From UHGV virus genome UHGV-1484817: a DNA stretch of 64,000 bases; one strand, written 5' to 3'. Below, one piece after another: positions 38,263 to 39,284 of the stretch. Position 1 is the first letter of the stretch; every line of letters begins with the position of its first letter. Under the pieces are notes generated by a model, which saw only the letters and a list, made by a program, of their open reading frames with translations, was not told the DNA's origin and ran no database searches. This stretch comes from a virus. A program made the position numbers and the translations under genes.

Positions 38263-38306
38263 CATAGTCAACATTTGCGCGGTTCTCATCAAGCAGTGGT
38301 ATTGAT

Positions 38307-39116
38307 ATGCAAGAAGAGAAACAACACTACCTCTACGTTCTGGTGCCGGAGAATGGAGATACTTTTAAAATCGGCATTTCATGTGGTCCATTGGCACGGT
38401 TTAAAGGGCTACAAGTGAATCCCGATTTTGCGCTTTCACGGGGCTATCGTGGTACGCGTTTGGCAATAGTTAATCTTGAGCGGGCTTTACACGCAACCTT
38501 TTTCCCCTGGAATGCGCCGTGGGAGAAAAGCGCCGGTGGCGGGCATACTGAATGGTTTACACGAGAGTGTCTTGATAAGGTTTTGGCTCATATCGAATAT
38601 CTAAATGATATGTGGGGAGGGATTCTCGAGCGGATTAAGTCGAATGATTTACTTCAGCGTCCAGTAGATGCTGCTCGCTCTTTCGAAAAAGAACTGGATG
38701 TTACTTCTATCGTGACTTTCAAAGATGACGCAGGAATGAGGGATGTGGCTTATGTCTCCATATCTGGCTATGAACCTGACGCGATCCGCGCTCAATGTGA
38801 ATTGCTGAAAGCGATGTTTACGCTTCGGACTAAATATCCCTGGGAGACAGGGCGGGTGTGCTTCCCTATGGAAGAGTTAACCGCCACCATTGATTCCCAG
38901 CTTTACCACGATAATCCAGAGAAGTTTTTTAGCCTTTTAGCCGGTAATGGGCTTAACTGTGTGTCCGGACTGGGGCGAAGTAGAATCCAACATGCCTCGC
39001 TCTTCGGTCCCTTCTTTTACGATCGAAACGGGTGCTTTGAGGCTGAACTTCCGGCGCTTACGCGTGCTATAGATACTATCGATTTCGAACGATTATTCGC
39101 AGCTCTTAACAAATAA
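38307..39116 (+). CDS. T5orf172/GIY-YIG-like domain protein
   Basis: N-terminal YLYVLVPENGDTFKIGIS ... GGGHTEWF pattern resembling the T5orf172 domain; sits between the incA iterons and the parA promoter and is followed by its own terminator. Confidence 0.55.
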   Translation: MQEEKQHYLYVLVPENGDTFKIGISCGPLARFKGLQVNPDFALSRGYRGTRLAIVNLERALHATFFPWNAPWEKSAGGGHTEWFTRECLDKVLAHIEYLNDMWGGILERIKSNDLLQRPVDAARSFEKELDVTSIVTFKDDAGMRDVAYVSISGYEPDAIRAQCELLKAMFTLRTKYPWETGRVCFPMEELTATIDSQLYHDNPEKFFSLLAGNGLNCVSGLGRSRIQHASLFGPFFYDRNGCFEAELPALTRAIDTIDFERLFAALNK

Positions 39117-39123
39117 CACTGAT

Positions 39124-39146
39124 GCCCCTGAACGGGGCTTTTTTGT
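39124..39146 (+). terminator. Rho-independent terminator
   Basis: GCCCCTGAACGGGGC followed by TTTTTTG. Confidence 0.65.
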
Positions 39147-39284
39147 GCCCTCCTTGCAACTCTCTATCGTGCAAAATGAACCAAACATGCAGAGAATGCT
39201 ATGTACAAGCATCTACGCATACATTATTATTTTATGCAGCATTTTTAATTAAATTCAAAAATACAGCATAAAGGATGACTTTCG

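Follow-up and report, generated by a model that had tools for sequence, protein, structure and literature searches.

A T5orf172-type nuclease gene as part of the p0111 replication cassette of P1-like phage-plasmids

A stretch of 64,000 nucleotides from the virus genome UHGV-1484817 (hereafter called the window) carries, between the control iterons of its replication region and the partition genes, an open reading frame (ORF) for a 269-aa protein with an N-terminal T5orf172/GIY-YIG nuclease domain. The gene is already known and annotated, and it is a standard part of the p0111 replication cassette. In P1-like phage-plasmids the whole of this cassette is exchanged with the IncY cassette of P1 itself, the recombination taking place in the left part of the origin (oriR) and just upstream of the partition promoter Ppar. 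What appears to be new is the conservation of the gene over three replicon types, the architecture of the protein, which joins a nuclease to a domain predicted to resemble the WH1 domain of Rep initiators, and a population behaviour like that of homing endonucleases. The reading favoured here, although held tentatively and at slightly less than an even chance, is that the protein may be a DNA-directed nuclease of the selfish or competitive kind, comparable to a homing endonuclease or to Odn of the Vibrio phage ICP1.

The gene and its replication cassette

The gene comprises the following features:

38307-39116, + strand: ORF encoding 269 aa, ATG start, taken from the ORF listing; carries YLYVLVPENGDTFKIGIS and, further on, GGGHTEWF; same family as RCS47 gp090 and JL22 gp57
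38328-38561, + strand: N-terminal T5orf172/GIY-YIG nuclease domain; Pfam match to residues 8-85, the domain reaching to about residue 105
38682-39113, + strand: C-terminal domain, about residues 126-269; family-specific in sequence, with a predicted fold like the WH1 domain of Rep initiators
39124-39146, + strand: intrinsic terminator of the ORF, GCCCC-TGAAC-GGGGC followed by six T, from a terminator scan

The ORF is a real gene and not a chance reading frame, because over 400 records have it at 96-100% identity and three diverged relatives at 28-44%, and its ratio of nonsynonymous to synonymous polymorphism (pN/pS) is 0.32. Its G+C content equals that of the flanks. The terminator hairpin has a folding energy of -11.9 kcal/mol (z = -3.1 versus shuffled sequences), and the preliminary description of this DNA, made from the letters alone, correctly placed a gene with its own terminator (ORF 38307-39116, hairpin 39124-39146) between incA-type iterons and the par promoter. 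The spacings it gave need some adjustment. The last incA iteron copy occupies 38258-38276 and the ATG of the ORF lies 30-35 nt downstream of it, not 45 bp. The distance of about 135 bp to parA agrees with the approximately 139 nt measured from the end of the terminator, but not with the 168 nt that separate the stop codon from the parA ATG at 39285.

In all four replicon versions compared (see below) the ATG is found 20-35 nt past the last iteron, and a consensus scan gave no sigma-70 promoter between the last iteron and the ORF in the window. The lack of a promoter consensus and the closeness of the ATG to the iterons make a coupling of ORF expression to RepA, or to transcription of repA, plausible. 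A search of the region for RNA elements returned a single sub-threshold chance match, to DUF2800 RNA (21.9 bits versus 60.2). Reading through the reverse-oriented iterons gives a spurious ORF at 38113-38418 (+ strand) with repeated 'AHSQ/AYSQH' peptides, and the same iteron read-through in one of the relatives (L003, 6001-6123) caused the gene caller to lengthen protein P0004 by 41 residues.

The cassette and its surroundings contain:

36924-39182, + strand: p0111-type replicon cassette, heterologous to the 1,500-bp IncY cassette of P1 by BLASTN
36945-37051, + strand: origin (incC-type) iterons, five direct copies with core TTGACTrnrnGCGA at 21-22 bp spacing, from repeat finding and pattern search
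37130-38014, + strand: repA' (294 aa), Rep3-family initiator matching Pfam Rep3_C and Rep3_N
38012-38276, both orientations: incA-type iteron array, two forward copies (38017, 38041) and four reverse copies (38134, 38196 as a variant, 38228, 38258)
39202-39230, + strand: promoter Ppar, identical to P1 Ppar
39285-40481, + strand: parA, encoding a ParA 99.7% identical to P1 ParA, with parB downstream

The edges of the cassette were set by BLASTN of the window against the P1 reference (NC_005856). The two are 98% identical up to 36923, which lies inside oriR, beyond the DnaA box and GATC region and immediately ahead of the first iteron, and the homology resumes at 39183 (99.4% identity), 19 nt before the -35 element of Ppar. 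Between these breakpoints (36923/36924 and 39182/39183) only 59 nt inside repA can be aligned to P1. The cassette measures 2,259 bp in the window versus 1,500 bp in P1, where it consists of incC iterons, repA, incA iterons and a 171-bp spacer. The preliminary description took incA of P1 to be followed directly by the par promoter, and in NC_005856 there is indeed no gene between the two; 190 bp of non-coding DNA separate the last incA iteron from Ppar and parA. IncY plasmids with the P7 type of par have only about 115 bp between incA and parA. The 171-bp spacer of P1 has no counterpart in the p0111 cassette and contains no remnant of the ORF detectable by blastn-short or tblastn.

The canonical IncY replicon of P1 and P7 shares its general layout with that of the window, both having five origin iterons that overlap the repA promoter region, a RepA of the Rep3 family, downstream control iterons in both orientations, and then parAB. 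They also share, at 98-99% identity, the left part of oriR with the DnaA box and GATC region, and Ppar-parAB. The window differs from the IncY replicon in its RepA, which is 42% identical to P1 RepA by BLASTP, in its iterons (TTGACTATACGCGA versus TGTGTGCTGGAGGGA in P1), and in having the additional nuclease gene with its terminator past incA. One iteron-like copy, TTGACTATAAGCGA, is found within the coding sequence of repA' at 37734-37747, with an equivalent at 5613-5626 in L003, and could be an internal RepA-binding site.

The gene had first been regarded as cargo inserted into the replication and partition region. A simple insertion into the P1 replicon is ruled out, since the entire block of origin iterons, repA and incA is heterologous to P1. 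Recent foreign cargo is likewise ruled out by the flank-like G+C content and by homologues in the same slot of three replicon types. The ORF is instead a component of a different replicon cassette, that of the p0111 type, and hundreds of P1-like genomes do carry the gene at the same place (RCS47, SJ46, JL22, phi456 and others), which leaves little of the cargo view. That the gene perturbs incA, as had also been suggested, is unlikely, as the arrangement is the stable norm of the p0111 replicon.

The cassette was found in 404 PLSDB plasmids, in 391 of them nearly full length and at 97-99.7% identity, and in 412 of 5,426 complete Escherichia coli genomes (approximately 7.6%), where 414 of the 421 matching places are on plasmids. 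Twelve phage records contain it, including RCS47, SJ46, JL22, phi456 and Ro157c2YLVW, and about half of the P1-like phage-plasmids have the p0111 cassette in place of the one found in P1. The published P1-like phage-plasmids RCS47 (FDJ53_gp090), JL22 (gp57) and SJ46 encode a protein 96-100% identical to that of the window, in the same position and within the same p0111 cassette. The JL22 cassette is 97.9% identical to that of the window, and JL22 has been typed as p0111 in a study which describes repA'(p0111) and an unknown gene in place of repA(IncY) (PMC9603915). The plasmid pSvP1 was reported to have '2 orfs inserted between repA and parA' (PMC6906374), and these were counted as the same gene. 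In Salmonella, 17 changes between IncY and p0111 have been inferred on the phage-plasmid tree (PMC11165635). The ORF is named 'GIY-YIG nuclease family protein' by NCBI PGAP/RefSeq, and belongs to PHROG 2876, which is listed as 'unknown function'. The literature search found no paper analysing the ORF itself; PMC9603915 and PMC6906374 mention it only in passing.

Some individual records deviate. In phi456 (OR339795.1) the ORF is labelled 'terminase small subunit', an evident mis-annotation, while SJ46 (L045) has the Q228* allele and the label 'hypothetical protein'. In the 231-kb IncFIB plasmid NZ_AP027538.1 (L058) only the last 86 codons of the ORF are left, at 31273-31596 beside parAB. The ORF is there cut off by the insertion sequence IS1, and the remnant looks like a P1-like fragment within a larger plasmid.

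Diverged relatives and domain architecture

When 1.84 billion representative proteins were searched exhaustively with a profile, P0004 and P0009 were the only other full-length relatives, and about 170 matches covered no more than the N-terminal 100 residues. A fourth version of the protein, P0011, matches the profile over the nuclease domain only, but can be aligned over its full length with P0009. The three relatives are 28-44% identical and are all found on P1-like elements whose DNA is about 70% identical to P1. Searches of GTDB genomes, IMG/VR and JGI metagenomes added nothing to the p0111-type gene but two weak matches that are confined to the nuclease domain (31-32% identity). In the databases searched, the full-length family is thus confined to P1-like replicons.

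In each of the three elements (L003, L004 and L005) the T5orf172 ORF is situated between the last control iteron and parA. L003 (Logan ERR2144811) has a p0111-type RepA, 84% identical to that of the window, and the same iterons. L004 (Logan SRR6505940) has an IncY-type RepA, 83% identical to that of P1, with P1-type iterons, and the NCBI record of its protein names Salmonella enterica as the source. L005 (Logan SRR12532267) has a third type of RepA, 41-48% identical to both of the others, and iterons of the form CTAyTGnnnkCTAC; its ParA (401 aa) and ParB (321 aa) have the sizes found in P7-par IncY plasmids. L003 and L004 differ by a swapped cassette of about 2.2 kb, with 98% identity elsewhere and with breakpoints placed as in E. 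coli. The three elements form a P1-like sister clade, with at least one member from S. enterica, that displays the same replicon dimorphism.

The comparison of the repA-parA intergenic region across P1-like elements, proposed as a check on the cargo view, thus gave homologues at the same site in three replicon types. Homologues at one site in three replicon specificities point to the ORF being an old partner of P1-family replicons, and the most economical reading is that the slot was filled before the replicon types diverged and that the IncY lineage of P1 and P7 lost the gene. Only the E. coli IncY replicons, whether of the P1-par or the P7-par kind, lack the ORF. When the IncY-linked P0009 was used in tblastn against PLSDB and phage records, no homologue was found in any E. 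coli IncY plasmid, and the only gene matched was that of the p0111 type. The L005 nuclease domain groups with that of the IncY-type L004 (61% identical), while the L005 RepA is roughly equidistant from both types; judged by these identities, the association of ORF and replicon is not strictly co-divergent.

The assignment of the N-terminal domain to the T5orf172/GIY-YIG nucleases, which had been suggested from a motif pattern, is secure. Pfam T5orf172 (PF10544, GIY-YIG clan) matches residues 8-85 with E = 3.2e-5 and 24.8 bits, above the gathering cut-off of 20, and it also matches 74 of 76 aligned homologues. The residues Y10, K21, G23, R31, E58 and E82 do not vary among the 76, and conservation is at least 90% at H62, G79, T81 and F84. 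The domain displays the alpha/beta fold of GIY-YIG nucleases and contains the whole signature set described for T5orf172 nucleases (PMC8263062; PMC10448857), that is, a tyrosine in strand 1, (K/Y)-I-G in strand 2, an arginine in helix 1 and the glutamate of 'TEWF'. From the motif, this last residue, E82, is the putative catalytic glutamate.

The C-terminal domain is probably Rep-WH1-like, resembling the WH1 domain of initiators from iteron-containing plasmids. When two independent structural models of it, a later one and an earlier, poorer one, were used in Foldseek, the same two families ranked first, and the Pi initiator stands lower in the list of fold matches (4.0). Its approximately 150 residues gave no sequence match in Pfam, the PDB sequences, the P1-family RepAs or 150 T5orf172 homologues. 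These homologues include P0015, a close relative in the T5orf172 domain in which Pfam detects a Rep3_N (WH1) domain at the corresponding C-terminal place. P0015 is encoded at 104-1771 of a 1,968-bp contig (L055, ENA ERZ27248471) and is followed directly by an ORF with Rep3_C; the locus may be a split initiator gene or one whose initiator has a nuclease domain at the N-terminus.

From the window to L003 the iterons are unchanged and RepA keeps 84% identity, while identity falls to 65% in the nuclease domain and to 33% in the C-terminal domain. A domain that diverges to this extent next to a conserved RepA and the same iterons does not seem simply to track the iterons of its own element, and these are probably not its target.

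Population behaviour and possible functions

The behaviour of the gene in natural populations was assessed on 69 complete p0111-type copies from IMG/VR, metagenomes and RCS47. The gene is intact in 59 of these, while at least five independent events have disrupted the other ten (about 14%). Eight of the disrupted alleles have nonsense mutations (W68*, S112*, Q228*), one has a 1-bp deletion, and one has acquired a tnpB element of the IS200/IS605 type; repA, parA and parB are never disrupted in the same loci. Among protein clusters, the truncated P0002 and P0003 together have 434 members versus 1,241 for the full-length form. The mean pN/pS of the ORF (0.25 for the N-terminal and 0.39 for the C-terminal part) can be compared with 0.02 for repA, 0.002 for parA and 0.055 for parB. 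Synonymous diversity is 0.027 in the ORF, 0.050 in repA and 0.039 in parA, a difference on which little weight is put. The disrupted copies and the pN/pS value show that the ORF is under purifying selection but dispensable for maintenance and propagation.

An IMG/VR copy (L051, 4295-6057) lacks nucleotides 295-523 of the ORF and has instead a 1.76-kb insertion encoding a 389-aa protein which, judged by reading its sequence, is TnpB-like of the IS200/IS605 family. In p0111-type elements, nucleotide diversity is 0.005-0.02 over the stretch from repA to gene 23, inclusive, but 3-10 times higher on the left side of the cassette (0.03-0.08). The diverse left side corresponds to 34300-36800 of the window, the region of upfC, upfB, ppfA, mlp and upfA, and synonymous diversity in upfA reaches 0.115.

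Four signatures have been described for T5orf172 homing endonucleases, namely variable presence, stops and frameshifts, essential genes as neighbours, and location at boundaries of genetic exchange (PMC10448857). All four are present at the ORF, which lies between repA/incA and parA and is polymorphic for presence or absence between P1 and the window on flanks that are 98-99% identical. If the protein is a selfish or competition nuclease, the C-terminal domain would steer it to specific DNA of related P1-type replicons without the gene or with another cassette. Cutting of a co-resident or co-infecting rival would then eliminate this rival, or alternatively, recombinational repair of the cut might copy the nuclease-bearing cassette into it, and such conversion would help to account for the repeated switches between IncY and p0111. 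Expression probably depends on read-through from repA or on a promoter overlapping the iterons, which would make the gene sensitive to RepA.

A narrower version of this idea, in which a diverged Rep-WH1 domain would steer the nuclease to rival P1-type replicons, at their origin or control iterons, as a replicon-borne 'incompatibility weapon', is rather improbable. In this version the rivals (IncY versus p0111) would be able to replicate alongside each other, but would compete for the same partition system and immunity. A rival that is cut at its iterons would be cured or have its cassette converted, which would drive the replicon switches in Escherichia and Salmonella as well as the rapid divergence of the C-terminal domain, and P1 and P7 would be lineages that lost the ORF.

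Several observations weigh against a selfish nuclease. No cognate empty allele can be defined as a homing site, since the whole 2.26-kb cassette is heterologous to P1. There is no sharp trough of nucleotide diversity centred on the ORF; instead the whole of 37.3-42.3 kb is low. E. coli IncY elements are about as common as those of the p0111 type (PMC9603915), and any drive would therefore have to be weak or balanced. Regarding the target, the protein displays no sequence mimicry of any P1-family RepA, the Foldseek E-values for the C-terminal domain (0.14-0.9) are not significant alone, and hhalign of the C-terminal profile against a profile of P1-family RepAs (IncY, p0111 and the third type) gave a probability of 0.2. 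Retention of the ORF in one slot across 28-44% identity also fits a vertically inherited accessory function.

An accessory function of that kind is the main rival to the favoured reading, although it is itself rather improbable. The WH1-like domain would in that case bind the incA iterons or form heterodimers with RepA through the WH1 dimer interface, and thereby modulate handcuffing and initiation, or the protein would process replication intermediates, with the nuclease domain either in use or domesticated as a regulator. The position of the ORF directly after the incA iterons in all four replicon versions, its ATG being so close to them, speaks for such a role, as do the predicted Rep WH1-like fold and the inheritance of the ORF together with repA in the cassette. 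There is also a precedent in CapR of the Vibrio phage satellite PLE, a domesticated T5orf172 protein which acts as a repressor (PMC10448857). However, replicons persist although about 14% of the natural copies are disrupted, and IncY replicons with either P1-par or P7-par work without such a gene. The residues of the catalytic signature are strictly conserved, and a partner of RepA or the iterons would not be expected to diverge to 33% in its C-terminal domain while RepA stays at 84% and the iterons do not change, nor to lack sequence similarity to its cognate RepA.

That the nuclease degrades incoming phage or plasmid DNA in general, as anti-phage defence or superinfection exclusion, its location in the replicon being incidental, is more doubtful again. 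The T5orf172 domain does recur in conflicts between mobile elements (PMC8263062; PMC10448857), a distant homologue of similar size (L006) is found in a chromosome beside genes of the Mrr, WYL and Ymh types, another is on a contig resembling a conjugative element, and costly defence genes are typically under weak purifying selection and often lost, as here. Against this, none of the PADLOC-DB v2 families matches the protein at E <= 1 and no NCBIfam model does, so the defence or anti-defence context proposed in the preliminary description received no direct support. A target related to the replicon is suggested by the confinement of the full-length family to P1-like replicons, by the strictly conserved slot that it holds in three replicon types, and by the Rep-like fold of the C-terminal domain. 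The least probable of the alternatives is that the gene is a relic, an old selfish nuclease gene that has no remaining activity or benefit and survives by hitch-hiking inside a cassette swapped as a unit. Its pN/pS is 6-150 times that of repA, parA and parB, nonsense, frameshift and IS-disrupted alleles are common, and the truncated clusters P0002 and P0003 are large relative to the full-length one. A relic should, however, not keep pN/pS clearly below 1, nor the reading frame and all the signature residues across relatives at 28-44% identity, nor an intact gene in 59 of 69 copies.

P1-like phage-plasmids are common carriers of genes for extended-spectrum beta-lactamases (ESBLs) and of mcr genes, and they are typed by the IncY/p0111 replicon dimorphism. 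If the p0111 cassette does carry a targeting nuclease, this could account for the recurrent changes of replicon type on a single backbone, for the way in which two P1-like elements compete within a cell, and for the 'minimal' look of the classical P1 replicon of P1-derived artificial chromosome (PAC) vectors. It would also extend the principle of Odn from the contest between a lytic phage and its satellite to conflicts between plasmids. Should the ORF instead tune replication, a replicon found in about 7.6% of the complete E. coli genomes would have a component that has so far been overlooked.

Relation to homing endonucleases and Odn

A general likeness links the ORF to phage homing endonucleases, both the free-standing T5orf172 ones of ICP1-, T5- and other phages (PMC10448857) and the GIY-YIG enzymes I-TevI and Seg of T4. 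Like the protein studied here, these combine a catalytic domain of the GIY-YIG type with a separate targeting domain. Their genes are likewise intergenic beside essential genes, polymorphic for presence or absence, placed at recombination boundaries, and frequently interrupted by stops or frameshifts. Most T5orf172 homing endonucleases use the zinc-finger domains CapR, DUF723 or DUF4397, while the 269-aa protein has none of these. The ORF further differs from the free-standing genes in having no definable empty homing site and in holding one slot across three replicon types.

Another related system is Odn (gp88) of the Vibrio phage ICP1, which consists of a T5orf172 nuclease and an initiator-type DNA-binding domain and has as its target the origin of the Vibrio satellite PLE, which it cuts at the iterons (PMC8263062). 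PLE escapes Odn by swapping its initiator/origin module, that is, there is selection for replicon swapping (PMC8263062). The two proteins differ in the order of their domains, which is reversed: in Odn the DNA-binding domain is N-terminal and the nuclease C-terminal. The binding domain of Odn is of the RepA_N type and similar in sequence to the RepA of its target, while its counterpart in the 269-aa protein is WH1/Rep3-like by predicted fold only. Odn acts for a lytic phage against a satellite, while the ORF resides inside a plasmid replicon and encodes a putative nuclease. What the two systems share is the T5orf172 nuclease domain, which here may, as in Odn, be joined to an initiator-type domain, and a setting of conflict in which replicon modules, the initiator together with its iterons, are swapped.

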